From: Mobula hypostoma
Lineage: Eukaryota
Assembly (NCBI RefSeq): GCF_963921235.1
Contig: NC_086108.1
Span: forward strand, 81,532,001 to 81,596,000
Length of the DNA: 64,000 nt
Direction: 5' to 3'
Part shown: positions 20,186 through 60,423 of the stretch, piece by piece
Numbering within the stretch: position 1 is the stretch's first letter
Layout of the letters: each line of letters begins with the position of its first letter
Notes under the pieces: model-generated
Told to the model about the DNA's origin: nothing
The model's input: only the letters and a program-made list of their open reading frames with translations
Databases searched by the model: none
Position numbers and translations under genes: made by a program

Positions 20186-22119
20186 TGTTGTGTTTGGCCT
20201 TAATAAAGACAAACAGTGGAGGTAAAACTAGCACATTTTTATTTACAGGACACTCCAGGAATGATGGCTTCAGCTCGACCTAAGCGCATGCACCCAACTC
20301 CCCCAACGTCACTTCCAGTTCTGGGTGAACTGTCCACATCGCACATTGGGAACTGAAATTCTTTATTATGTATATACATAATAACACATCTTCCCCCTTT
20401 AAAGTTAAAAAAAAGCTATGTCCACGTAAATCTGCAGGGAACAATAATGCTTTCCAACAAAGATATTTACATTAACTTCAATTGTAATGAGCAAATACAG
20501 TTCCTTATTCACTCAGCAACTCTCGGACTCTGAGGTGGTTTGATGATCTTCTTTGGTCTACTATTGTGCTTGAGTTTGTGTTGTCTCGCAGCTCTACACA
20601 TATCCATAGCCTTTTCCAGCGTTAAATCTTTTTCACAGAGCAATCTTTCTCTGAGCCCATTATTTGAAGTCCTGCAACCTATTTTGTCTCTTCTAGTGAG
20701 ACTCTCAAATCTCCAATCTCACAGGACTTGCTCAGTGTGTGAAGCTCAGCTAAGTATTGGTAAAGCTAACACCTTGTTCCTGGTCACAGGAAAACAACTT
20801 ATATCTTTCAAACATGATGTGTTTACTTGCAACAAAATAACCTTAATTTTTTAAAATCAGAATGTCCAGTGTAAAAACAGTCTCATCAATTTGAAAGCTG
20901 TTGTAGATGTGCAAAGCAACTTCACCAATTATGTTTACAATGATAGATGCCTTCAATTTTCTATTTCCCCTCTGGCTCTACTCATTGCTAAATATATATT
21001 GGAGGCGGGAGGAGAATGTAGGAGGCTGGAGGAGAAGACAGCGGCGCAACGCAGCGCACGCAGCTCTCCGGTGAAATGATATCGTATTTGTAAGTGGGAT
21101 GCCGTGCACAATTCTGTTTTGATGGAGACAGACATGAGAAGGCACAGAGGAACATCTGGAGAAATTTCTGAAATGCCCGGCTCGCTGCCGCTGCTACTGT
21201 GCGATCAAGAATCTCCGGAAGGAAGGCCGCAAAATCTCCGGTTTTGCCTGCTGCTGGCAACCGAGGCTGGGGTTGAAGCGTTTGGCAGAGATGGTGCTCG
21301 GTACTCAGTGTCAGAGGGCTGATCAGAGCTCCAAGTTTTCAGATGTCTCAGAGTCGGACTGTGGTCGGGCATGGCAGGGAAGTTTCTCGTCCTTCTCCCG
21401 TCTGCGTGAGATGCGGGACTTTCGAGAGACTTTGAACTTTTTTACTATGCCATGGCCTGTTCTTCATCAAGTTATGGTATTGTTGCAGTGTTGTAACTAT
21501 ATGTTATAATCATGTGGGTTTTGTTAGTTTTTCAGTCTTGGTCTGTCCTGTGTTTCTGTGATATCACACCGGAGTAATATTGTATCATTTCTTAATGCAT
21601 GCATTACTCAATGACAATAAAAGAGGATTGCGTGTCCTCATAGTCTAATCTATTCTAATCTGATCTAATTAAATTGTCGTTTGAAGTGTTTCCAGTTATC
21701 AGCTGGATTTCCAGTCAACTGCATCAGTGTGGGAGAATTTAACTCATCCATTATGGAACTTCTCAGGCTCTCGCACCAAGAGACTTGGATGAACAATGGC
21801 AGCTGCAGGACACAACCTGCGCTCTGGCTAGCAGTTTCTCTCCATCGCTTTCTTAATCACTCGTGGTACATTTACTCTCCATGCTTAGTCCTTATGGCAA
21901 CTTCTGATGTTATGTTTGTTCTTAATAAAAGACAAACTTAGCGAGAGTAAAACTAACACATTATTTATTTACAGCAATGGCTCTAGCTTCACATGACCGC
22001 GTGCGGACTGCTCATGGCTTCAGCTCGACCTGAGCGCATGCAACCAGCTCACCGAACGTCACTCCCGTATTGCAGACTAGGAGCTGAAGTTCCATATTAT
22101 GTACACACATAATAACACA
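20186..22119 (-). mobile_element. Internally deleted Gypsy (Mag-like) LTR element with partial gag only
   Basis: LTRs at 20186-20388 and 21908-22119; TSD TAGAG/TAGAC; PPT AAAGGGGGAAGA; partial PBS TCAGAAGT. Gag from ATG 21751 (MDELNSPTLMQLTGNPADNWKHFKRQF...GLRERLLCEKDLTLEKAMDMCRAA), then an integrase-tail-like SRPKKIIKPPQ. Confidence 0.85.
21000..21668 (+). mobile_element. ~650-bp non-autonomous retroelement inserted in the Gypsy gag
   Basis: Homologous over its length to 43806-44462 (opposite strand). Ends CAATAAAAGAGGA...(TCTAA)n. Splits the gag codons QF|NIYLA. Confidence 0.8.
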
Positions 22120-22722
22120 TAGACCAGCAGAGCTTAAATCAAGATGAACTAAAATATTTAATATGATGCAAAATAAGACTTATGAAATAAAACAACGTTC
22201 AGGAAACAAAGCAAAAAGATAGAATGTAGAACATTGAAGAGTCTAGCACAGAAAGAGTTCCTTATATTATATTTCTTCTATTTAAATGTTCCGTGGGTTA
22301 ACAGTAAAGGATCATATTCTGGAAGAACTGGAGAACTTTTATTTACAATAATAAACAAATGTGTCTCAACCCCGCCATGTGCTGAAACATTCTGGCAAAC
22401 CCCGCACATGCTCAGTGCTGTCCAATCAGATACTGGCACGTCTTTGCACGTGATATCACCACACCTTCCCTTCCTTAAAAAGAAAAAATAAATAACAACA
22501 TTAATCAAAGCAAAGACATAATTCAACAAGTCTCAATCAGTCTCTCAGTGGGTTTACGAACATGAGTAGACCTTCTAAGTGGTACACACAGGTCTTGCGT
22601 TTCCTTGTTATTATTTACATGTTTTGTCCCGTCTGCACCAGTTAACTGAATCTCTGAAGAATCACATCTTCTTTTCCTTAAAAAGAAAAACAAATAACAA
22701 CATTAACCAATAAACAAATCAG

Positions 22723-24325
22723 CTAACGGAAACTCTGAAGTTGGCTCTTCACTATCTGAGCCATGACCCTTTTCTTTTTCTTCTTCTTTTCTGCTTTAAG
22801 CTTTTCTTTATGTATCTCAACTAAACTTTTTGGTATACTCTCACATGCCTCTTGGTTAGAATCTGGAATTTCAGGTAAGCAGTTCACACTATCCTCCTCA
22901 GCAATCTGCTTCCCTGCTTCTGTTTGGACTGTATCTTTCCTAATACCTTCCACTTCCATTTGTAATGAAATATGAATCATCTTTTCTTCATCTCATTCAT
23001 TCATTAACTGTGAAATCTCTTTTTTATGCTGTGACTTCATCATTTCAATAAAACTTCTCAATTCCTTTACTTGTGCTTTCACTTCTTCCTTATACTTTGC
23101 CCACTGTGAACGTTCTTGCTCTAGATGGTGATTATACTGTATCTCATATTCTCTCAGTCTCTCTTTCATTATCGCTTGCATTGAAGCAACCTCTTCCTGC
23201 TGTTGCTTTTTCATATCACCAATTGCCTCCTGTTTGGTCGTCTCAGACACTGCAGCTACTGCTTTTATATTCTTCATGTCAGCACTTTCATAAAGCACAT
23301 CTATATAAAATTCCTCACGTTCATCTTCAATCACTGCATTTACTTGTTTCATTTCATTTTCCTTCTTTCTACTTCTACAACAGCATGAAAAACGATTAAT
23401 CTTACCGCAGCTGTAGCAAAGTTTGCCATATGCGAAACACTGACTTAGATGGTGTTCCCGCGCACAGCGATCACGACTTTTCTTTTCAAATGCCGTCTTG
23501 CTCTCCATCGATTTTGTCAACGTATTATTATACTTCTTGATATAAAGAAGAGGAAAAATAGCCCTTAACTCGGCAGTGGAGTTATTGGGGCACCGTCTTT
23601 TGACAGTGTTTCCGTAGCAAGCTATTCTTGTTTTTATTAGGCCGAGTTGCTAGCTCGACGCTCAACTCGACTTGGATTTGAACTCTGGAACCTTCGCTCC
23701 GGAGTCCGGCGCTGATATTATTGTGCCACCAAGCGGGACATTTCTTGCTATATTCGCGCTTTTTATCAGCATTTACATTAAAGTTTTCAACAAAAACCTC
23801 TTCAGCCTGTGACATTACGGTCTCAGAATCTTTGCAGAGCACAAAAGCTTTTTCGAAATTTAAATCTTGCTCTCTCAACAGCCTTTCTCTCAGTGCATTA
23901 TCTCAAATGCCTCAAACAAGTCTATCTTTAATAAGAGAGTCTGTGAGCAATCCAAACTCGCACGTTCTACTACACTTTCTTAACTCCATAACATACTGAT
24001 CAATCGTTTCAGCAATCCTTTGCACACATGTGAAGAATTTATATCGGTCATATGTTAAGTTCTGCTTAGGTAAACAAAATACTTCAAATCTGTCCATTAT
24101 GGACTTTAAATTGAAATTATCTCCATCTTCAAAGACAAAATTATTATATACCTCTACTGCGTCATTCCTGATTACATGGAGCAGAAGCGCAGCTTTGGTT
24201 TTTTCTGATTTCTCTTCATAATCGATCACTGATAAGTACAGTTCAAACTGTTGCTTGAAGATCCTTCAATTCTCTGCTACATTCCCAGTCAGCTGAAGTT
24301 TTGGTAGGAGTTGTAAACCTTCCAT
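22723..24325 (-). pseudogene. Disrupted chimeric ORF: Gag + rabaptin (RABEP1/2)-like + SH3KBP1-like + SLU7-like segments
   Basis: ATG 24325 and ORFs 24229 and 23878 share one frame. After removing the SINE plus one TSD, ORFs 23520 and 22980 continue it. Only four point stops (24268, 23914, 23905, 22995). Gag motifs LTGNVAEN.RIFKQQF, LRERLLRE.DL and a degenerate double Zn-knuckle. Confidence 0.85.
23545..23737 (-). mobile_element. Short tRNA-like SINE inserted in the gag
   Basis: A-box-like TGGCACAAT and B-box GAGTTCAAATCC. Degenerate 15-bp TSD at 23530-23544 and 23738-23752 (12/15 match). Confidence 0.75.
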
Positions 24326-24603
24326 ATTACTGTTTGCAGTTCGAACTTATTTCCTTCTCTTTTTTTTTCGATTATCTTCGATTCTTGATTCTCAATTCTC
24401 CCGTATCATTCTTCCAGAAGCACTTCTGACGCCATGTTATATTTCTTCTATTTAAACGTTCCGTGGGTTAACAGTAAAGAATCGTATTCTGGAAGAATTA
24501 GAGAACTTTTATTTACAGTAATAAATAAATATGTCTTAACCCCGTGCATGCTCAGTGCTGTCCAATCATGTACTGGCACATCATTGCACGTGATATCACC
24601 ACA

Positions 24604-25120
24604 CCTTCAGCTCATCATGTCTATGCCAAGCATTGATGTCAATGTAAACTAATTCCTTCTGCTGCACATGAACGTAACTCTCTTTTGCCTGTTTAAATGC
24701 CACTGTCTGTGCTTCTATCATCTCACCTGGCAACTATTCCCTGCACTTGTGTAAAACGTTTACCTTTGTAAATCTCCTTTAAACTTTCCCCCCTTACATT
24801 AAAACTCTAGTATATGACATTTCCACACTGGAAATACAACACTGACTATCTACCCATATCTATACCACTCCGAATTTTATATCTTTCTACCAAGTTGCCC
24901 CTCAGCCTTTGATACTCCAATGAAAACAATCCAACTCTCCTTCTATCCAATGCACTCCAACCCAGGAACATGCTGGTGAACATCTTCTGACCCCTCTCCA
25001 AAGCCTTCACATTCTTACTATGGTGTGGTGACAGAAATGCGCAGATCTGTGCGAAGGTCCCAGCAATCTCCTCGTTTGCTTCCTTTAGTATTCCAGGATA
25101 GATCCCATCAAGCCCTGGGG
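24604..25120 (-). mobile_element. CR1 LINE fragments
   Basis: SPGLDGIYPGILKE and GLFSLEYQRLRGNLVERYKI remnants. Confidence 0.75.
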
Positions 25121-26226: not shown

Positions 26227-28478
26227 ATAGAAACATAGAAACATAGAAAATAGGTGCAGGAGTAGGCCATTCGGCCCTTCGAGCCTGCACCACCATTTAT
26301 TATGATCATGGCTGATCATCCAACTCAGAACCCCGCCCCAGCCTTCCCTCCATACCCCCTGACCCCTGTAGCCACAAAGGCCATATCTAACTCCCTCTTA
26401 AATATAGCCAATGAACTGGCCTCAACAGTTTCCTGTGGCAGAGAATTCCACAGATTCACCACTCTCTGTGTGAAGTTGTTTTTCCTAATCTCGGTCCTAA
26501 AAGGCTTCCCCTCTATCCTCAAACTGTGACCCCTCGTTCTGGACTTCCCCAACATCGGGAACAATCTTCCTGCATCTAGCCTGTCCAATCCCTTTAGGAT
26601 CTTATACGTTTCAATCAGATCCCCCCTCAATCTTCTAAATTCCAACGAGTACAAGCCCAGTTCATCCAGTCTTTCTTCATATGAAAGTCCTGCCATCCCA
26701 GGAATCAATCTGGTGAACCTTCTTTGTACTCCCTCTATGGCAAAGATGTCTTTCCTCAGATTAAGGGACCAAAACTGCACACAATACTTCAGGTATGGTC
26801 TCACCAAGGCCTTGTACAACTGCAGTAGTGCCTCCCGGCTCCTGTACTCGAATCCTCTCGCTATAAATGCCAGCATACCATTCACCTTTTTCACCGCCTG
26901 CTGTACCTGCATGCCCACTTTCAATGACTGGTGTATAATGACACCCAGGTCTCGTTGCACCTCCCCTTTTCCTAATCGGCCACCATTCAGATAATAATCT
27001 GTTTTCCTATTTTTGCCACCAAAGTGGATAACTTCACATTTATCCACACTAAATTGCATCTGCCATGAATTTGCCCACTCGCCCAACCTATCCAAGTCAC
27101 CTTGCATCCTCTTAGCATCCTCCTCACTGCTAACACTGCCACCCAGCTTCGTGTCATCCGCAAACTTGGAGATGCTGCATTTAATTCCCTCATCCAAGTC
27201 ATTAATATATATTGTAAACAACTGGGGTCCCAGCACTGGGCCTTGCGGTACCCCACTAGTCACCGCCTGCCATTCTGAAAAGGTCCCGTTTATTCCCACT
27301 CTTTGCTTCCTGTCTGCTAACCAATTCTCCACCCACACCAATACCTTACCCCCAATACCGTGTGCTTTAAGTTTGCACACTAATCTCCTGTGTGGGACCT
27401 TGTCAAAAGCCTTTTGAAAATCCAAATATACCACATCCACTGGTTCTCCCCTATCCACTCTACTAGTTACATCCACAAAAAATTCTATGAGATTCGTCAG
27501 ACATGATTTTCCTTTCACAAATCCATGCTGACTTTGTCCGATCATTTCTCCGCTTTCCAAATGTGCTGTTATCACATCCTTGATAACTGACTCCAGTAGT
27601 TTCCCCACCACCGACGTTAGGCTAACCGGTCTATAATTCCCCGGTTTCTCTCTCCCTCCTTTTTTAAAAAGTGGAGTTACATTAGTCACTCTCCAATCCT
27701 CAGGAATTAGTCCAGAATCTAACGAGTTTTGAAAAATTATCACTAATGCATCCACTATTTCTTGGGCTACTTCCTTAAGCACTCTAGGATGCAGACCATC
27801 TGGCCCTGGGGATTTATCTGCCTTCAATCCCTTCAATTTACCTAACACCACTTCCCTACTAACATGTATTTTGCTCAGTTCCTCCATCTCACTGGACCCT
27901 CTGTCCCCTACTATTTCTGGAAGATTATTTATGTCCTCCTTAGTGAAGACAGAACCAAAGTAATTATTCAATTGGTCTGCCATGTCCTTGCTCCCCATAA
28001 TCAATTCACCTGTTTTTGTCTGCAGGGGACCTACATTTGTCTTTATCAGTCTTTTCCTTTTTACATATCTATAAAAGCTTTTACAGTCCGTTTTTATGTT
28101 CCCTGCCAGTTTTCTCTCATAATCTTTTTTCCCCTTCCTAATTAAGCCCTTTGTCCTCCTCTGCTGAACTCTGAATTTCTCCCAGTCCTCAGGTGAGCCA
28201 CTTTCTCTGGCTAATTTGTATGCTTCTTCTTTGGAATTGATACTATCCCTAATTTCTCTTGTCAGCCACGGGTGCACTACCTTCCTTGATTTATTCTTTT
28301 GCCAAACTGGGATGAACAATTGTTGCAGTTCATCCATGCAACCTTTAAATGCTTGCCATTGCATATCCACCGTCAATCCTTGAAGTGTCATTTGCCAGTC
28401 TATCTTAGCTAATTCACGTCTCATACCTTCAAAGTTACCCCTCTTTAAGTTCAGAACTTTTGTTTCTGAATTAACTAT
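26227..28478 (-). mobile_element. Young 5'-truncated CR1 LINE
   Basis: (CATAGAAA)n tail, TSD GGGTTAC at 26220-26226 and 28479-28485, uninterrupted ORF2 segment. Confidence 0.97.
26325..28424 (-). CDS. CR1 ORF2 reverse transcriptase (N-truncated, no endonuclease)
   Basis: 699-aa open frame with KSPGPDG, NYRPVSLTS, QHGF, YLDFQKAFDKV, GVPQGPVLGP and KFADDTKL. Confidence 0.95.
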   Translation of the reverse strand: MRRELAKIDWQMTLQGLTVDMQWQAFKGCMDELQQLFIPVWQKNKSRKVVHPWLTREIRDSINSKEEAYKLARESGSPEDWEKFRVQQRRTKGLIRKGKKDYERKLAGNIKTDCKSFYRYVKRKRLIKTNVGPLQTKTGELIMGSKDMADQLNNYFGSVFTKEDINNLPEIVGDRGSSEMEELSKIHVSREVVLGKLKGLKADKSPGPDGLHPRVLKEVAQEIVDALVIIFQNSLDSGLIPEDWRVTNVTPLFKKGGREKPGNYRPVSLTSVVGKLLESVIKDVITAHLESGEMIGQSQHGFVKGKSCLTNLIEFFVDVTSRVDRGEPVDVVYLDFQKAFDKVPHRRLVCKLKAHGIGGKVLVWVENWLADRKQRVGINGTFSEWQAVTSGVPQGPVLGPQLFTIYINDLDEGIKCSISKFADDTKLGGSVSSEEDAKRMQGDLDRLGEWANSWQMQFSVDKCEVIHFGGKNRKTDYYLNGGRLGKGEVQRDLGVIIHQSLKVGMQVQQAVKKVNGMLAFIARGFEYRSREALLQLYKALVRPYLKYCVQFWSLNLRKDIFAIEGVQRRFTRLIPGMAGLSYEERLDELGLYSLEFRRLRGDLIETYKILKGLDRLDAGRLFPMLGKSRTRGHSLRIEGKPFRTEIRKNNFTQRVVNLWNSLPQETVEASSLAIFKRELDMAFVATGVRGYGGKAGAGF

Positions 28479-29668
28479 GGGTTACGGGTTTGATGTTTTC
28501 ACTGCCGTATCAGGGTGAGTGACCTGTTAGTTTCCATGCGAGGAAGAGGTTGGTTTTGCAGTTTGTGAGTTTTGTTTCTTTTTCTTTTGCGTGCAGGGGG
28601 GTGGGTGTGGTGGTTGATGTCTCTTCTTTTAACGACTTTCATGACTTTTCTGTATTTTATGTCTCTCTGAAGAAGACCAACCTCAGGGGTGTATTCTGCG
28701 TGCATGCTTTGATAACAAAATGAACCTTTGAACCTTTGACTTGTGATGGAATAGTTCCAAATCACTGGGTATATTGAAGGCAGGAACGGGTAGACTTTTG
28801 ATTACAAAAGGAATCAGGGAATATGTGCTTAATTCAGGAAAGTGGTGTTGAGGTAAAATATCACTGAGTTGGCAAGGCACCGGGTAAGGCTGAATGGTCT
28901 ACACTTCCTTCTGTTTCTTAACTCATGTAATGATATTAACTTAAGCCATCAAATTTCAACCAAGTTATAACTGCCTGCAATCTAATTCTCTCTCTCACTA
29001 CATAGTTCATCCTTCATCATGCTGTTTTTGTGTAGCTTCTTTTTTTGTCATTAACTGCAATTCTCAGTCAAGATTGGGGTATGATGTAATCAAGTGACTA
29101 ATCTAATAACTAGTTGATGATTAACTGTTTAATAGCAACATATATTACAAACTAGAAAAAAGAGCCGTCAATTCCAATAAATGTTTAGCCAGTATGTAAA
29201 TTAAGTTACCAGAAAGTTAGAAAATGATTCTTCGTTTTCTTGGAAAAACTGCAGTAAATCATACAAGTTGAAGTTAATAGATAACATTTTGCTAATGGCT
29301 GCTATTTCAATTGCGAAAGTCGCATTCATTAAAGATTGTTTAATATTTTTGCAAAATAATTCATCTTATTAGGAGCCAATGATCCGGAGGGAGGTTTCTG
29401 TTTTGTTTCAACAGGCTGGTGTAATAGGTAGAGTAGCAGCTCTAACAACCCAGGGTCCATCCTCACTTCCAAAGCTCCCTTTGTGGAATTTGTTTGTTTC
29501 CTCTTTAACTGGATGGTCTTTCCTCCGGGGCATCTGCTTTCCTCCCACATGCAAAAATGTGCCGGCTGGTTGGTTAAGTGGCAATTGTAATTGTGCTTTG
29601 TGTAGGAAGGCAGTTGGAGAATTGGTGTGGGGTGAAGGGTATCACAGAGTAGATCACTGGTAAGGGAG

Positions 29669-30655
29669 GACAATAGACAATAGGTGCAGGAGTAGGCCAT
29701 TCAGCCCTTTGAGCCAGCACCACCATTCACTGTGATCATGGCTGATCAACCACAATCAGTATCCAGTTCCTGCCTTATCCCCATAACCTTTGATTCCACT
29801 ATCTTTAAGAGCTCTATCCATCTCTTTCTTGAAAGCATTCAGAGACTTGGCCTCCACAGCCTTCTGGGACAGAGCATTCCATATATCCACCACTCTCTGG
29901 GTGAAAAAGTTTTTCCTCAACTCCATTCTAAATGGCCTACCCCTTATTCTTAAACTGTGGCCTCTGGTTCTGGACTCACCCATCAGCAGGAGCATGCTTC
30001 CTGCCTCCAGCGTGTCCAATCCCTTAATAATCTTATATGTTTCAATAAGATCCCCTCTCAGCCTTCTAAATTCCAGAGTATACAAGCCCAGTCACTCCAA
30101 TCTTTCGACATATGACAGTCCCACCATCCCAGGAATTAACCTTGTGAACCTACGCTGCACTCCCTCAATAGCAAGAATGTCCTTCCTCAAATTTGGAGAC
30201 CAAAACTGCACACAGTACTCCAGGTGTGGTCTCACCAGGGCCCTGTACAGCTGCCGAAGGACCTCTTTGCTCTTATACTCAATTCCCCTTGTTATGAAAG
30301 CCAGCATGCCATTAGCTTTCTGCACTGCCTGCTGTACTTGCATGCTTGCTTTCAGTGACTGATGTACAAGAACACCTAGATCTCGTTGTACTTCCCCTTT
30401 TCCTAACTTGACTCCATTTAAATAATAATCTGCCTTCCTGTTCTTACCACCAAAGTGGATAACCTCACATTTATCCACATTAAACTGCATCTGCCATGCA
30501 TCTGCCCACTCACCCACCCTGTCCAAGTCACCCTGCATTCTCATGACATCCTCCTCACATTTCACACTGTCACTCAGCTTTGTGTCATTGGCAAATTTGC
30601 TAATGTTACTTTTAATTTTTTTAATTCCCTCATCTAAATCATTAGTATATATTGT
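29669..30655 (-). mobile_element. CR1 LINE, 5'-truncated
   Basis: (CAATAGA)n tail; ORFs 30092-30670 and 29756-30085 give the RT C-terminal part with FANDTKL and one stop. Confidence 0.93.
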
Positions 30656-31179
30656 AGAATGGGATTGCACTGAAAGTCAACACAGATTTCAACTTATATA
30701 AAGGAAAATATGAGACATCACTTTAAAAGACCATTGACAAAAAAAATTGAGTTCCTTACAAATCCAACACAAATTGGTCATGTAAAAGGGAATAGGCCGA
30801 GATTCTGATGTTGAAGCCATCTCAAATGTTGTTCAATTAGCTGCAACTAAGATTGTGAAATCTCCCGAATTGATTCAGACTAAACTCCTTTATATCACTT
30901 CATTCATGAGTTTGAAAGTTATCTATCAGTGCAACAGGGAAGTGACCTTTATTAACCATAATACTGAAGATAATGTGGCTTTTACAGTCTGAACACAAAG
31001 TTCACTGCACTCTGGGTGAAGAAACTTCTACCCATCTCAGTTCTGAATGGCAGACACAGTATATGTCACCACAGACTGTGATCTTTCGTTCGAGATACTG
31101 CTGCTTCAAATCCACTGTCATCTTCTGATCGCAAGAGATTTAAGGCCAGTCCATTTATTCTCTGCACATGTGACAAGTC

Positions 31180-48770: not shown

Positions 48771-49827
48771 TAATACTGTTACGTACCCCGTAACTGGGTT
48801 GCCAAACCAGCAGAAATGGATCACTCAGTTGGAGTCTGGAGTACTAGAACTAAGAAAGTTTTATTAAAGAAACAAGCAACACAGTAATCGAAAGGATAAT
48901 AAATGCAACAATTCAACAATGATAACCACACATGTGCACAGAATTAAGATAACAGCATCAATCAAGCTCTATCGTTGTCTAGGGGTAAATGACCAATTTC
49001 AAAATGACTCAAAGTTCAGTCCAGTTTGTAGTTCAGTTCGCAGTAATCGTTGCCATGGCGATGGACAAGGTGGGGGAAGAGAGACAGAATAGGAACAACT
49101 GATCATTCAGAACACTGCTTCACTCACAGACCAGCGGGATGGCTCACAGACCAGCGAGATGGCTCACAAACAGCTTTTGGGCAGGTCCTTGGTGATGTCA
49201 CCTGAGGTCACCGACTGTGACCCCTCCTCCAGATGCGGTCGATCCTCTGCAGTGAACCCGGCACCCAGGCAAGGGCGGACACACACCGGGTTCCCGCTGA
49301 TCGTACCTTTCCACCCTTGTCGTTGTCCGATACTTCTCACCCACTCGTGAGAAGCGCACCGCTTCCAGGGTCTCGTTACCTCGGGTGGCGTGTGTCCCTG
49401 TCTTAGCGAACCTGTCCCTTTTTATCCCCCTGCTGGGGTATCGCCTGTCCATCACTTCAAACAGTTCAGGGTTCAAAGGGGGGAGCCGCTCCAGACAGCT
49501 CTCTCTCCCACATCCCTTCATTACACATCTCCAGACGCTGCTCCATTGTTCCTTATCTCTCCTTCCCCTGAGGGCAGGTGGCAGACCAACTGCTGATGCC
49601 ACTGATGCTAGCCCAGGCCAGCAAACATCTTAATTTTATGTGTATTCTTGTAACACTTCCCCCCTTTAAGGATTTTTACCGGGAGGTAAAAATTACAAAC
49701 ATGACTACATTATCTGATACATACACAATATACATCTTTAACAGTTATTTAGCTAATACAGAGAATTTGAAGCTGTCAACACCTTGACAGACAGTCATCA
49801 CATTTTCTGTTCCTTTTACACGTGTTA

Positions 49828-50376
49828 TTAATAATCCCTTAGACCAGGCTCCAACTCAGCAAACTTCATAGTGGCCAAAAACACTGATGAATTGCGACCA
49901 ATGTAACCTCTCATTTGGTTTTGTCCCGGACCACAACAACAAGGGTCGTCCCATTCCGACTCAATTTTCTCTCGCAAGGGCTTAGTAGGAGGGGGACGGG
50001 TATTGACCGCAGAGTTATTGCAAAACTTCCTGCAGTACCCCACCATCTCCAAGAGCCTTCTGAGGGCCCTCTTGTCTATCGGGGTTGGGAGGTCAGCGAT
50101 AGCCTGCACTGTAGCTTGCATCACTGCCAGCTGCCCCTGTGTCACCACAATTCCCAGGTAAGTGACCCTTGTGTGGCCGAATTCATTTTTTTCAAGGTTC
50201 ACTATCAAGCTGGCTTCAGACAGCCGTATTAAATTGCCAATACACACCTCTGTGTTCATCAGCCCTTTAGTCACTGAATTACTCAAAAAATATGGGTGTT
50301 GTTTACTTGGCTGCCCTATTGTAACCACAATCACCCAAGTCCCAGTTCTTTGCATTTCCTCGGGACAATCAAACAC
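49828..50376 (-). pseudogene. Degenerate RT remnant (no YxDD)
   Basis: KQHPY and LSEASLIVNLEKNEFGHTRVTYLG...LRRLLEMVGYCRKFC match the RT N-flank and thumb; the catalytic core is absent. Confidence 0.85.
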
Positions 50377-52748
50377 ATGGGTGCGAGTCGTTTAATTACT
50401 CCTTCGGGGATTAAGGGAGAGACCTTATCAGTAGACCTGGCCAAAACAATAGCCTTCTCCCATCTGACCGATCCCATCCTAATCTTTTCAAAATGGTTCT
50501 TTTCTCTTATCAGGGGGCCCCTAGCTTCATTGATTTCCACGCTAACACCGACTAGGTTTGTTAGCATATCAAAAGCCGGTGACCGTCTCAGTTCGCGTCG
50601 GTCATGATCAATAACATTTTTCCCCCTGGGCAGCCGGTAAATCTCTTTCATGATTCCACCAACTGTTTCCTCCAGCACCGCAAAATGTCCACCGGGGGGT
50701 ACCTCGTGGGCCATGTTAAAAACCTCATCCCCATAACTCTTTTGCACCACCCCCCACTCCTCATCTGCGGATGCTGTACTTGATTTCCCTTTCTTCCTTA
50801 GCACTTCCTCATCCGCACAATAGCTTGTCAAGGCTGTGTCAGAGAGAGCGGTCTCGGCAAAAACCATCAGCCCCTCGTCTCGCTCCTGCGTCTGCACAAA
50901 TTCTTTCCTGGCTACTGCTACGTCCGTCCCAGCTCCCTCACTACCTCTTATCTCACTACACCCTGTCTCATACAAGGTTGGCAGAAATGTTTCAGCCAAA
51001 TTCACCATCGCGGGCGGGGCCTCCATGCTGGCAGGCTGACCCGTCAATCTCACGACTGGGAACACGATTCCTCCGGCGATGTCATTACCGAGCAAGACTT
51101 CCACGTCTTTCATCGGTAATTCGGACCTCACCCCGATCGTGACTAGTCCAGAGACCAGGTTGCTCTGTAAGTGTATCTGGTGCAAAGGGACTGGCTCTGT
51201 CCCTTCCCCAACACCTTTGACCTCTACCTCCCCAGTCTGGGTCTCTGAGCTAAACTCTAATACACTCTTCAGTATTAGTGACTGACACGCTCCCGTGTCT
51301 CTCCAGATCCGCACTGGAACTGGTTTTAACCTCTTTTTCACTGACACCAGTCCGGCCGAGATAAACCTCTCGCGCCCTTCCTGGACTTTTTCAGACCTGT
51401 CCTTCCCTAGCGGTTCGCTTAACAGCTCAATACAGCCATTCAAAATTTCCGCTTTTCCTTTCCCCGTCTCCTTCCTTGGGGCAAAGCACCTGGACGCAAA
51501 GTGTCCGACTTTCCCACAATTATAACAGACGACCCCAGGAGACTTCCTACCAGACTGCTCCCGGTCTACCTTATCCTTTTCACTAGTCCCCGGCTTACTT
51601 TCTGACTTTTCCAGCGGACTCTCCCCTCCGTCCTGACTACCCTTCTGGTAGCCTTTACTCGGGGCAAACTTCATTTTATGCGTCAACGCATACTCATCCG
51701 CTAACTTAGCAGTTGCGGCTAACGTGGCTGCCTCTTTCTCATCGAGGTAGGGTCTCATACCCTCAGGGACACAACCTTTAAACTGCTCAATCAGAATCAG
51801 CTGCAGCAGTCTGTCATAATCCCCCTCTACCCCTTTCGAGGCGCACCAACGCTCACAATATGTTTGCATCTCGCGAGCAAACTCCAAATACGTGCAGTCC
51901 CACTGTTTCCTCGCATTCCGGAACCTCTGCCGGTATGCCTCCGGGACCAACTCATAAATCCTGAGGATGGCCTCCTTCACCACCTCATACTTCTGGGCAT
52001 CTTCCGCGGATAAAGCGGAGTAAGCTTGTTGGGCCTTCCCTTTCAGTACACTCTGAAGTAAGACAACCCACTTATCCCTCGGCCATTCCTGACTTATGGC
52101 CACTTTTTCGAAATGGAGAAAGTACCGATCCACATCGGTATCGTCAAATGGGGGAACCAGCCTAACCTCCTGGGTCGCCCGGAACCCTCCACCTTGGTTC
52201 GGCACGAGCCCCTGCTCGGCCCTTATCTTTAACTTCTCCAGCTCAAATTCCCTTTCCCTCTGTTTCTCCTCTCTCTCCAACTGTCTGTCCCTCTCTCTCT
52301 CTTCTCTCTCCAACTGTCTTTCTCTCTCTTGCCTTTCTACCTCTTTCTCTCTCTCCCGCCTTTCTAACTCTCTCTCTTTCTCCCGCCTTTCTAACTCTCT
52401 CTCTTTCTCCTGCCTTTCTAACTCTCTCTCTTTCTCCTGCCTTTCTAACTGCTTCTCTTCGTGTTCTAACTGCCGTACCCGGAACTCGTGCTCGAGTCTC
52501 AGTTTTTCAAGCTGTACCTGTACCGCGTCTCCAGCAGGTTTTTCAATAGACACCTCCCCCAGCTCACCTTGGGGAAACACACCTTTAGATACATAGTGCT
52601 CTACAATAGCTCTGTGTATCTCCTCTCTCCTCATTGTCGACTTCACCTTAGCAAGATTCACCCGTTTTGCCACAGCTATCAATTCCGATTTCCTGGCATC
52701 CTCTAATGCCTCCAAGGTCGGTGCCTTTATAAATTCCTCAACCTCCAT
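50331..52748 (-). CDS. Gag (SCAN-like capsid, CCHC knuckle) - aspartic protease - pol remnants
   Basis: 805-aa open frame: E/R/K repeat, VPEAYRQRFR...ILIEQFK, CYNCGKVGHFASRC, RDTGACQSL, LLGND, and integrase Zn-finger remnant AHEVPPGGHF. Confidence 0.92.
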   Translation of the reverse strand: MEVEEFIKAPTLEALEDARKSELIAVAKRVNLAKVKSTMRREEIHRAIVEHYVSKGVFPQGELGEVSIEKPAGDAVQVQLEKLRLEHEFRVRQLEHEEKQLERQEKERELERQEKERELERREKERELERREREKEVERQERERQLEREERERDRQLEREEKQREREFELEKLKIRAEQGLVPNQGGGFRATQEVRLVPPFDDTDVDRYFLHFEKVAISQEWPRDKWVVLLQSVLKGKAQQAYSALSAEDAQKYEVVKEAILRIYELVPEAYRQRFRNARKQWDCTYLEFAREMQTYCERWCASKGVEGDYDRLLQLILIEQFKGCVPEGMRPYLDEKEAATLAATAKLADEYALTHKMKFAPSKGYQKGSQDGGESPLEKSESKPGTSEKDKVDREQSGRKSPGVVCYNCGKVGHFASRCFAPRKETGKGKAEILNGCIELLSEPLGKDRSEKVQEGRERFISAGLVSVKKRLKPVPVRIWRDTGACQSLILKSVLEFSSETQTGEVEVKGVGEGTEPVPLHQIHLQSNLVSGLVTIGVRSELPMKDVEVLLGNDIAGGIVFPVVRLTGQPASMEAPPAMVNLAETFLPTLYETGCSEIRGSEGAGTDVAVARKEFVQTQERDEGLMVFAETALSDTALTSYCADEEVLRKKGKSSTASADEEWGVVQKSYGDEVFNMAHEVPPGGHFAVLEETVGGIMKEIYRLPRGKNVIDHDRRELRRSPAFDMLTNLVGVSVEINEARGPLIREKNHFEKIRMGSVRWEKAIVLARSTDKVSPLIPEGVIKRLAPMCLIVPRKCKELGLG

Positions 52749-53731
52749 TTCTGCTGTTTGTCTTTTCTTTCTTTCGGGAATTTTAACCCAATCAATTTAC
52801 TCCGTCCCAAATTTAGCGTTCAAAATCCCGGACGAGCCCCCACTTATGTTACGTACCCCGTAACTGGGTTGCCAAACCAGCAGAAATGGATCACTCAGTT
52901 GGAGTCTGGAGTACTAGAACTAAGAAAGTTTTATTAAAGAAACAAGCAACACAGTAATCGAAAGGATAATAAATGCAACAATTCAACAATGATAACCACA
53001 CATGTGCACAGAATTAAGATAACAGCATCAATCAAGCTCTATCGTTGTCTAGGGGTAAATGACCAATTTCAAAATGACTCAAAGTTCAGTCCAGTTTGTA
53101 GTTCAGTTCACAGTAATCGTTGCCATGGCGATGGACAAGGTGGGGGAAGAGAGACAGAATAGGAACAACTGATCATTCAGAACACTGCTTCACTCACAGA
53201 CCAGCGGGATGGCTCACAGACCAGCGAGATGGCTCACAAACAGCTTTTGGGCAGGTCCTTGGTGATGTCACCTGAGGTCACCGACTGTGACCCCTCCTCC
53301 AGATGCGGTCGATCCTCTGCAGTGAACCCGGCACCCAGGCAAGGGCGGACACACACCGGGTTCCCGCTGATCGTACCTTTCCACCCTTGTCGTTGTCCGG
53401 TACTTCTCACCCACTCGTGAGAAGCGCACCGCTTCCAGGGTCTCGTTACCTCGGGTGGCGTGTGTCCCTGTCTTAGCGAACCTGTCCCTTTTTATCCCCC
53501 TGCTGGGGTATCGCCTGTCCATCACTTCAAACAGTTCAGGGTTCAAAGGGGGGAGCCGCTCCAGACAGCTCTCTCTCTCCCACATCCCTTCATTACACAT
53601 CTCCAGACGCTGCTCCATTGTTCCTTATCTCTCCTTCCCCTGAGGGCAGGTGGCAGACCAACTGCTGATGCCACTGATGCTAGCCCAGGCCAGCAAACAT
53701 CTTAATTTTATGTGTATTCTCGTAACAATAC

Positions 53732-54600
53732 TTACCACTAATACTACTACTACGTTGACTTAGGCCTAGGGGGCCGGCGTCGGGCACAATGACAGACTCT
53801 CCACTTCTCCCCCTCCCTCATCAGTGCGTTCAGTTCATCTACATTAGCCGCGCCGCTGTCTTCTAGGAGCGTGTTGACCATAGTCTTGGGAGGGTGCCAA
53901 GGGTTCCTCCTCCCACGCTTGGGCTCCCATATGATGACTAGGCTGGCAGGTAGCTCAGAGTGGCGTAGACAGTGCCCCGCTAGTTGCAGTCTTCTCGCCT
54001 CGATTTTAGTGGTGAGCATCGGTAGGTTGTTATAGAGCTCAACGTTCGTCATGTGCTGTTGCCAACTCACATCAAGAGCCATCCAGAGCATTCGTGTATA
54101 GCAACCATCTAGAGACTTTCGCATCGTCTTGGTGAGTGTCCACCTCTCGCATCCGTACGTGAGAATGGATTCTATGACTGCTATGAAAATCCTCTTTTTA
54201 AGCCGCTGGTCAGGTTCAACTTCCAGATTTCCTTCATGTCGTTCATAACCCTCCACGCCAGTGCCTTCCGTATCTTTATGTCCTTCTCTGAACTCATCAT
54301 TCTTGACCCAAGGTACTTGTAGTCAAAGACTTTCTTAATGGCATCATTCTCTACAGTCTTGAGAGTACTTTCTTCACAGTTAAACGCCATGTAGCATTTA
54401 GGTGAAGTCCAACATTATTGCACTCAATTTCCACTTTTGTCAGTAGCTGCTGTGTTTCCTCCATCTGGTCAGAGAGCAGGACTATGTCGTCTGCAAAATC
54501 GAGATCCGTGAGCGTAACTGACTGACCCTTTTGGTTCACCATGGTTTTATGGTAAAACCAAGCTTGTCATGATCTTTGGTAGCTTGACACAGAGCGTCAA
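53732..54600 (-). mobile_element. RTE/RTEX-type LINE, 5'-truncated
   Basis: LTDLDFADDIVLL, DYKYLGS, ESILTYGCERWTL, RRLQLAGHCLRH; (TAG)n tail. Confidence 0.9.
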
Positions 54601-58586: not shown

Positions 58587-60423
58587 GCATGAGAAGTGGG
58601 GTAAAGGAAAACGCCAAGGCATTCTTCAATTATGTGAAGAACAAAAGGATGACAGGAGTGAAGGTGGAACCGATTAGAGATAAAGGTGGAACCGATTAGA
58701 GATAAAGGTGGGAAGATGTTCCTGGAGGCTGTGGAAGTGAGCAAGGTCCTCAATGAATACTTCTCTTCGGTATTCACCAATGAGAGGGAACTTGATGATG
58801 GTGAGGACAATATGAGTGAGGTTGATGTTCTGGAGCATGTTGATATTAAGGGGGAGGAGGTGTTGGAGTTGTTAAAATACATTAGGACGGATAAGTCCCC
58901 AGGGCCTGACGGAATATTCCCCAGGCAGCTCCATGAGGTGAGGGAAGAGATTGCTAAGCCTCCAGCTAGGATCTTTATGTCCTCGTTGTCCATGGGAATG
59001 GTACCGGAGGATTGGAGGGAGGTGAATGTTGTCCCCTTGTTCAAAAAAGGTAGTAGGGATAGTACGGGTAATTATAGACCAGTGAGACTTACTTCTGTGG
59101 TGGGAAAGCTGTTGGAAAAGATTCTTAGAGATCGGATCTATGGGCATTTAGAGAATTATGGTCTGATCAGGGACAGTCAGCATGGCTTTGTGAAGGGCAG
59201 ATCGTGTCTAACAAGCCTGATAGAGTTCTTTGAGGCATATAGATGAGGGTAGTGCAGTGGATGTGATCTATATGGATTTTAGTAAGGCATTTGACAAGGT
59301 TCCACACAGTAGGCTTATTCAGAAAGTCAGAAGGCATGGGATCCAGGGAAGTTTGGCCGGGTGGATTCAGAATTATCTTGCCTGCAGAAGTCAGAGGGTC
59401 GTGGTGGAGGGAGTACATTCAGATTAGAGGATCGTGACTAGTGGTGTCCCACAAGAATCTGTTCTGGGACCTCTACTTTTCGTGATTTTTATTAACAACC
59501 TGGATGTGGGGGTAGAAGGGTGGGTTGGCAAGTTTGCAGACAACACAAAGGTTGGTGGTGTTGTAGATAGTGTAGAGGATTGTCGAAGATTGCAGAGAGA
59601 CATTGATAGGATGCAGAAGTGGGCTGAGAAGAGGCAGATGGAGATTAACCCAGAGAACTGTGAGGCGGTACACTTTGGAAGCACAAACTCCAAGGCAGAG
59701 TACAAAGTAAGTGGCAGAATACTTGGTAGTGTGGAGGAGCAGACGGATCTGGGGGTACATGTCCACAGATCCCTGAAAGTTGCCTCACAGGTAGATAGGG
59801 TAGTTAAGAAAGCTTATGGGGTGTTAGTCTTCATAAGTCGAGGGATAGAGTTTAAGAGTCGCAATGTAATGATGCAGCTCTATAAAACTCTGGTTAGGCC
59901 ACACTTGGAGTACTGTGTCCAGTTCTGGTCGCCTCACTATAGGAAAGGTATGGAAGCATTGGAAAGGGTGCAGAGGAGATTTACCAGGATGCTGCCTGGT
60001 TTAGAAAGTATGCATTATGATCAGAGATTAAAGGAGCTAGGGTTTTACTCTTTGGAGAAAAGGAGGATGGGAGGAGACATGATAGAGGAGTACAAGATAA
60101 TAAGAGGAATAGATAGAGTGGATAGCCAGCGCCTCTTCCCCAGAGCACCGCTGCTCAATACAAGAGGACATGGCTTTAAGGTAAGGGGTGGGAAGTTCAA
60201 GAGGGATATCAGAGGAAGGTTTTTTACTTAGAGAGTGGTTGGTGCGTGGAATGCACTGCCTGAGTCAGTGGTGGAGGCAGATACACTTGTGAAGTTTAAG
60301 AGACTACTGGACAGGTATATGGAGGAATTTAAGGTGGGGGGGTTATATGGGAGGCAGGGTTTGAGGGTCGGCACAACATTGTGGGCCGAAGGGCCTGTAA
60401 AGTACTGTACTATTCTATGTTCT
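58587..60423 (+). mobile_element. CR1 LINE, 5'-truncated, disrupted RT
   Basis: TSD AAGATTTGG at 58578-58586 and 60424-60432. ORFs 58686-59246, 59230-59427 and 59434-60231 are separated by a frameshift and stops. Short tandem duplication near 58661-58706. Confidence 0.96.

Follow-up and report, generated by a model that had tools for sequence, protein, structure and literature searches.

A slu7 fragment as the third host-gene passenger of a Gypsy-type LTR element in a ray genome

LTR-mediated retroposition, multi-gene chimeras and the secondary spread of such chimeras have already been described in the accessible text of Tan et al. (2016; PMC5131818). The multi-gene chimeras named there include maize Bs1 and a four-gene copy in the mouse (PMC5131818). 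In Bs1, according to the same text, exonic pieces of three host genes lie between LTRs, the copies have switch points in common, 1–5 copies are present and one of the pieces is out of frame (PMC5131818). In crocodilians, endogenous retroviruses (ERVs) have been shown to capture host mRNA (KIT-ligand or nectin3) and to multiply it to 6–9 copies; the accessible part of that report describes retroviral lineages, each with a single long capture that is under purifying selection (PMC4299795).

The subject of this analysis is a fragment of slu7 in a 64,000-nucleotide stretch of DNA from Mobula hypostoma, the whole of which is called the window. By most of the features tested, the fragment qualifies as an LTR-mediated multi-gene retrocopy; it is the third passenger carried by a Gypsy-type ray element. 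It shares with the animal LTR-mediated retrocopies, as far as the accessible text presents them, a partial mRNA copy within an LTR element, several parental genes in one locus, secondary retroposition, sense orientation and possibly short similarity at the junction (PMC5131818). The ray chimera differs from these retrocopies in appearing at tens of copies, under several species labels and with other stages of its formation visible. With Bs1 it shares an LTR-bounded set of exonic fragments from three host genes and the common switch points. The ray chimera departs from Bs1 as described in sitting in a vertebrate genome, in having each of its three pieces in the gag frame, and in copies that appear to be at least ten times more numerous. 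The capture and multiplication of host mRNA are common to the ray element and the crocodilian ERVs; relative to the accessible description of the latter, the ray element would be set apart as Gypsy-type, lacking env and carrying three short fragments. Literature combining RABEP1, SH3KBP1 and SLU7, or an elasmobranch retrotransposon with rabaptin, was not found. A description of the family was likewise not found in the sources searched, and subscription journals and repeat databases, which lay outside the search, may catalogue it. None of the three genes is named in the accessible main text of a mobulid genome preprint (10.64898/2026.10.27.761883).

The slu7 piece sits in a 2.3-kb LTR element (Table 1), behind the RABEP1 and SH3KBP1 fragments and at the place where pol would be expected. 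As in LTR-mediated retrocopies, the LTR pair and the duplication lie on both sides of it. The piece itself is an internal coding piece joined directly to the element, with no poly(A) and no duplication of its own visible by eye.

Table 1. Features of the chimeric LTR element, in window positions, listed from the 5' to the 3' side of the element with the flanking duplication first
Feature	Position	Strand	Basis or remark
Probable target-site duplication, left copy	24604..24608	-	5 bp, 4/5 alike with right copy
Probable target-site duplication, right copy	22260..22264	-	sequence
5' LTR	24435..24603	-	TG...CA; 30 nt of 3' LTR absent
Primer-binding-site-like stretch	24421..24434	-	begins TGG, directly after 5' LTR
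Degenerate gag, N-terminal and capsid part	23753..24436	-	stops, frame breaks
Later SINE-like insertion in gag	23545..23739	-	between 13-bp direct repeats, 11/13 alike
Gag end with zinc knuckle	23286..23531	-	alignment to XP_059819315
Captured RABEP1 (rabaptin-5) N-terminal coiled-coil	23089..23285	-	Pfam Rabaptin E 3.5e-30; Narcine RABEP1 alignment
Captured SH3KBP1 (CIN85) C-terminal coiled-coil	22934..23088	-	lower bound approximate
13-nt spacer	22921..22933	-	aligns to residues after SH3KBP1 in XP_072897951
Captured slu7 mRNA fragment (apparent exon structure)	22746..22920	-	about 21 nt of one exon, whole 84–86-nt exon, about 70 nt of next
Element-derived 3' remnant	22526..22749	-	overlaps slu7 piece by 4 nt, 22746–22749
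Polypurine tract	22464..22476	-	sequence
3' LTR	22265..22463	-	154/167 aligned positions identical to 5' LTR

Judged from its sequence, the element is of Ty3/Gypsy type and non-autonomous. Its LTR anatomy is evident, and the role of the primer-binding-site-like stretch is read from the established anatomy of LTR elements. It has a retrotransposon gag with zinc knuckle, and the aspartic protease that belongs after it is seen in the related proteins XP_059819315 and XP_072897951, in which the protease matches (E 0.0003–0.002) lie below the Pfam cut-offs. The degenerate gag part gave a Pfam PNMA match that was also below cut-off (E 0.0018), and its first matches in Atlas were to Retrotrans_gag (score 0.93–0.94). 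An RT or integrase core is not present inside the element. Relative to XP_059819315, the window copy has lost the protease together with the beginning of the RABEP1 piece at 23286, where 9 contigs of one DNA run (X9) leave into sequence that resembles a protease start when read by eye. The head of the SINE-like insertion may be tRNA-like; ARAGORN returned 0 genes and Rfam one chance-level match, with no tRNA found.

The SH3KBP1 fragment matched PDB entries 5abs (E 1.5e-12) and 2n64 (E 5.1e-12) and is 86–90% identical to batoid SH3KBP1, whose host contig leaves at 23088. An in-frame TGA at 22995–22993 interrupts it. The zinc knuckle, RABEP1, SH3KBP1 and SLU7 parts lie in one sense frame in the window. 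The spacer between SH3KBP1 and SLU7 probably remains from the pol tail of the element or else from the final codons of SH3KBP1. The 3' remnant is probably the end of pol, on the strength of a motif that we take to be characteristic; its 44-residue tail received no name from Atlas. The polypurine-tract region occurs twice, at 22663–22710 (interrupting the 3' remnant) and at 22460–22508 (49 bp, 88%), and several contigs skip about 105 nt at these repeats, so copies differ there.

The window holds several other elements. A young LTR element at 48777–53727 has 881-bp repeats that are 99.4% identical, a minus-strand ORF of 821 residues that encodes SCAN and zinc-knuckle domains, and a short pol-like fragment, and it lacks an intact RT; next to it, at 53750–54322, lies an RT-like fragment that belongs to a different element (by eye). 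Beside the chimeric element lies an older repeat pair (20186–20389 and 21908–22120, 68% alike), which may be the LTRs of a further decayed element; a dispersed repeat lies between them at 21028–21648. Reverse-transcriptase ORFs or fragments at 26325–28481, 30092–30676, 58662–59246 and 59428–60231 are probably LINE remnants.

The first-pass annotation had proposed a captured SLU7 segment at 22745..22920 and had considered the call weaker than its other two because part of it is of low complexity. The peptide that it quoted is present as given on the minus strand, starting at 22920. In a search of 5.8 billion proteins, SLU7 of the skate Amblyraja radiata (XP_032885542.1) was the sole match with E ≤ 0.1 among 14 candidates (E 2.1e-15). 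Outside the lysine run, the identity to skate SLU7 is 30/37 residues (pairwise E 9e-19), and the score of 149 obtained without the run was reached by 0 of 2000 shuffles (mean 28, maximum 50). With the run included, the alignment extends ungapped over 50 residues, and the tail is alike at 7 of 9. The concern that the similarity would disappear outside the poly-Lys run was thus justified against human SLU7 alone, which at residues 458–504 was the best of 3 PDB matches (E 0.012) and was not found when the PDB was searched without the run; it does not hold against the skate protein. The captured piece corresponds to skate SLU7 residues 430–488, a linker and lysine-rich region, and lacks the Slu7 Pfam domain of the host protein (PF11708 family); a Pfam search with the 60-residue SLU7-derived piece gave no match.

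Sequencing reads placed the bounds. Four of the 24 runs listed were aligned to 22140–23420: X1, X5 and X9 (DNA) and X15, which is presumed to be RNA on a tool's guess. A host slu7 contig in X15 (2164 nt, depth 213) aligns to 22746–22920, within one base of the bounds first proposed, matching at 164 of 175 letters, with 11 letters that differ and 10 in gaps. Beyond both bounds this contig continues as slu7 coding sequence, as translated by eye against skate SLU7. On these alignments, the 175-nt minus-strand piece at 22746–22920 is host slu7 coding sequence, and its identity and bounds are firmer than was originally thought.

The lysine tract of the window copy has been damaged. A change of frame to GHGSDSEE had been noticed, and this peptide indeed begins at 22768 in another frame than the quoted peptide. 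The change had been attributed to a one-base slip; relative to the host slu7 contig, however, 10 nt are missing at about 22767–22771. The suggestion that other copies might lack the frameshift proved right: the 10 nt are carried by X9 record 26 (22670–22833, well into element-only sequence) and by an X5 contig of depth 53.7. Since element copies retain the 10 nt, the frameshift is a 10-nt deletion at the level of this copy.

The slu7 piece appears to cross two exon junctions, which points strongly to a spliced mRNA as its source. Each DNA run has one contig with host letters whose alignment is confined to 22815–22900. The positions 22815 and 22900 are given by the end distances of this contig at all listed sites counted (7/7 in X1, 5/5 in X5 and 2/2 in X9), where the counts come from 40 of 177 difference rows and omit sites in X5 and X9 with no host-letter contig or with another contig's distance. 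The exon reading is based on these end distances, not on splice-site letters. A bubble of 31 letters in the assembly would be expected to end 30 letters beyond the outermost difference, but the ends of this contig are only 21 and 10 letters away from it; an exon of 84–86 nt therefore fits better. The borders of the human SLU7 exons, which we take to lie after residues 464 and 488, fall at the matching codons. Both of the exon borders so placed are crossed by the window with no intron. Because the host-letter contig is confined to the stretch between them, the window would join three exons with the introns missing.

The chimeric family is multi-copy. At 7 diagnostic sites, host letters account for 0–7% of the summed depth and element-type letters for 93–100%, under three species labels. 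In X1 and X5 the slu7 piece is covered 60–170 times as deeply as the flank; such summed depths do not count copies, and they appear to correspond to tens of them. Contigs that differ from the window by 7–13% bridge the SH3KBP1–SLU7 junction (X1 record 6, X5 record 22, X9 record 28), and the SLU7–tail junction is bridged by X9 record 26, again a contig unlike the window copy. Secondary retroposition with common junctions was thus seen in all three DNA runs. At the edges of the 3' LTR, each DNA run has 18–35 contigs that depart at 22267 and 15–21 that do so at 22463, and their flanks are unlike (agreement about 0.4). The 3' flank junction of the window itself was found with 0 differences in 181 letters in X1 and with 5 in 208 in X5, which places the window insertion before organisms A and B separated. 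Among the contigs listed, none spans the whole stretch, and full-length copies with three pieces were seen only in the window. In X15, the SLU7 piece is covered at the listed sites by the host contig alone; three low-depth contigs identical to the 3' end of the window may be DNA or pre-mRNA.

Related copies have been annotated as genes in stingrays. XP_072897951.1 contains a protease, a start that we take to be RT-like, a 128-residue SH3KBP1 piece (88%) and a tail that is presumably integrase-like; a PDB search with this protein gave no RT or integrase match. In XP_059819315.1 and XP_072880776.1, the zinc knuckle comes with the complete protease or some of it, and a longer RABEP1 piece meets SH3KBP1 at the same junction as in the window. 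The SLU7 piece is absent from all three models, which are predictions and may be spliced or mis-joined. They would represent other stages of capture. Named 'RABEP1-like' or 'uncharacterized', they look like element copies and not like host paralogues. An annotated protein with all three pieces was not found in the protein searches; among 143 matches in a search of 1.84 billion representatives, none had three pieces and none had its best stretch only in the SLU7 part. Searches for related elements gave 55 pattern matches in metagenome contigs and 10 matches in viral contigs, with 0 confirmed in either. Joints between the SH3KBP1 part and the 3' tail that omit the slu7 piece (22748–22749 to 22995–22998) occur in contigs of X5, X9 and X15, some with a small inverted stretch between; with sides of only 21–26 letters, they give a weak hint of SLU7-free variants.

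With high probability, a spliced slu7 mRNA was captured by a double template switch, the multi-gene chimera spread, and the copy in the window is an old one of the family that is now dead. We infer the template switching, the order of capture and the mobilisation in trans. SH3KBP1 mRNA would have been captured first, and RABEP1 and slu7 later, each by a double template switch. The SH3KBP1 and RABEP1 mRNA fragments would have replaced most of pol, and the slu7 fragment would have entered during reverse transcription in place of a short stretch of the 3' (pol) tail. Such a chimera would have kept its LTRs, primer site and polypurine tract and could have been copied in trans to tens of loci. Later, the window copy would have lost its protease and 10 nt of the lysine tract and gained stops and the SINE-like insertion. 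At the 3' end of the piece, the element contigs depart at 22749 and the alignment of the host contig stops at 22746, an overlap of 4 nt. Short similarity at the switch point is expected by the template-switch model in its accessible description (PMC5131818). At the 5' end, the microsimilarity is read from the XP_072897951 protein alignment only, and the 3' overlap is only 4 nt long. Four X9 contigs leave at 22749 into other sequence; together with the spacer, which aligns past SH3KBP1 in XP_072897951, this suggests that slu7 replaced part of the tail.

The slu7 fragment is most likely a passenger with no function of its own. As its sequence reads, the window copy cannot make the lysine tract as protein, because the upstream in-frame TGA and the broken gag precede it. 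An NLS-like signal had been proposed for the tract, and these lesions, among them the stops and the insertion in gag, speak against one in this copy. The lysine-rich region does help to dictate the nuclear localisation of human SLU7, according to the accessible text of a review (PMC9658179), and by analogy an NLS-like role may be reasonable for the ancestral fusion only. Nor can the piece, as predicted from its content, be a splicing factor, since the Slu7 Pfam domain (residues 135–406 of skate SLU7) and the rest of the protein are missing.

A rather unlikely alternative grants the same origin and holds that the cassette was kept by selection, as a Gag–protease fusion with two coiled coils and the SLU7 lysine tract that would serve oligomerisation, trafficking or nuclear import. 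Four junctions are in frame, for which the expectation is 1 in 81 if they are independent, and copies with a lysine tract of host length continue in the frame of the 3' remnant. Captured host genes are also under purifying selection in the crocodilian ERVs, as the accessible text states (PMC4299795). However, microsimilarity between like codons favours in-frame joins with no selection, and the RT-like and SH3KBP1 parts of XP_072897951 do meet on a common five-residue stretch. In the middle exon, the family-wide differences from the host come to 4 replacement and 3 silent letters, too few to speak for constraint, and no three-part protein is annotated.

Less probable still is entry by another route, in which a LINE-made retrocopy or a cDNA recombined at the DNA level into one copy of the element and was then multiplied. 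The window is rich in LINE reverse-transcriptase remnants, and the SINE-like insertion records non-LTR activity on this very copy. Yet the slu7 piece is internal coding sequence that by eye shows neither a poly(A) tail nor a target-site duplication, and the contigs leaving at 22749 carry other sequence, which indicates replacement and not insertion. Chance likeness due to the lysine run, or an artefact of assembly, can be dismissed with near certainty: the human SLU7 match vanishes without the run, but the skate match outside it, the shuffles, the host contig and the junction-bridging contigs in three runs refute both.

With three mRNAs captured, the chimera multiplied and other stages surviving in stingray genomes, the ray element offers a case in which the serial shuffling of exons by an LTR retrotransposon can be dissected in a vertebrate. 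Transduced host genes help some retroviruses to spread. There is a small chance that a vertebrate Gypsy lineage swapped its pol stepwise for a selected cassette of host modules, the coiled coils of rabaptin-5 and CIN85 and the lysine tract of SLU7, in frame with Gag and protease; if this is true, the fusion would have aided the spread of a non-autonomous element, and the SLU7 tract would be a nuclear-import or RNA-binding tail. The tens of copies of the element allow passenger and selected cassette to be tested against each other, which low-copy cases such as Bs1 hardly do. At least three stingray RefSeq models, one of them named 'RABEP1-like', look like copies of the element, and copies of this kind can bias both the sizing of gene families and the mapping of reads for slu7, rabep1 and sh3kbp1.
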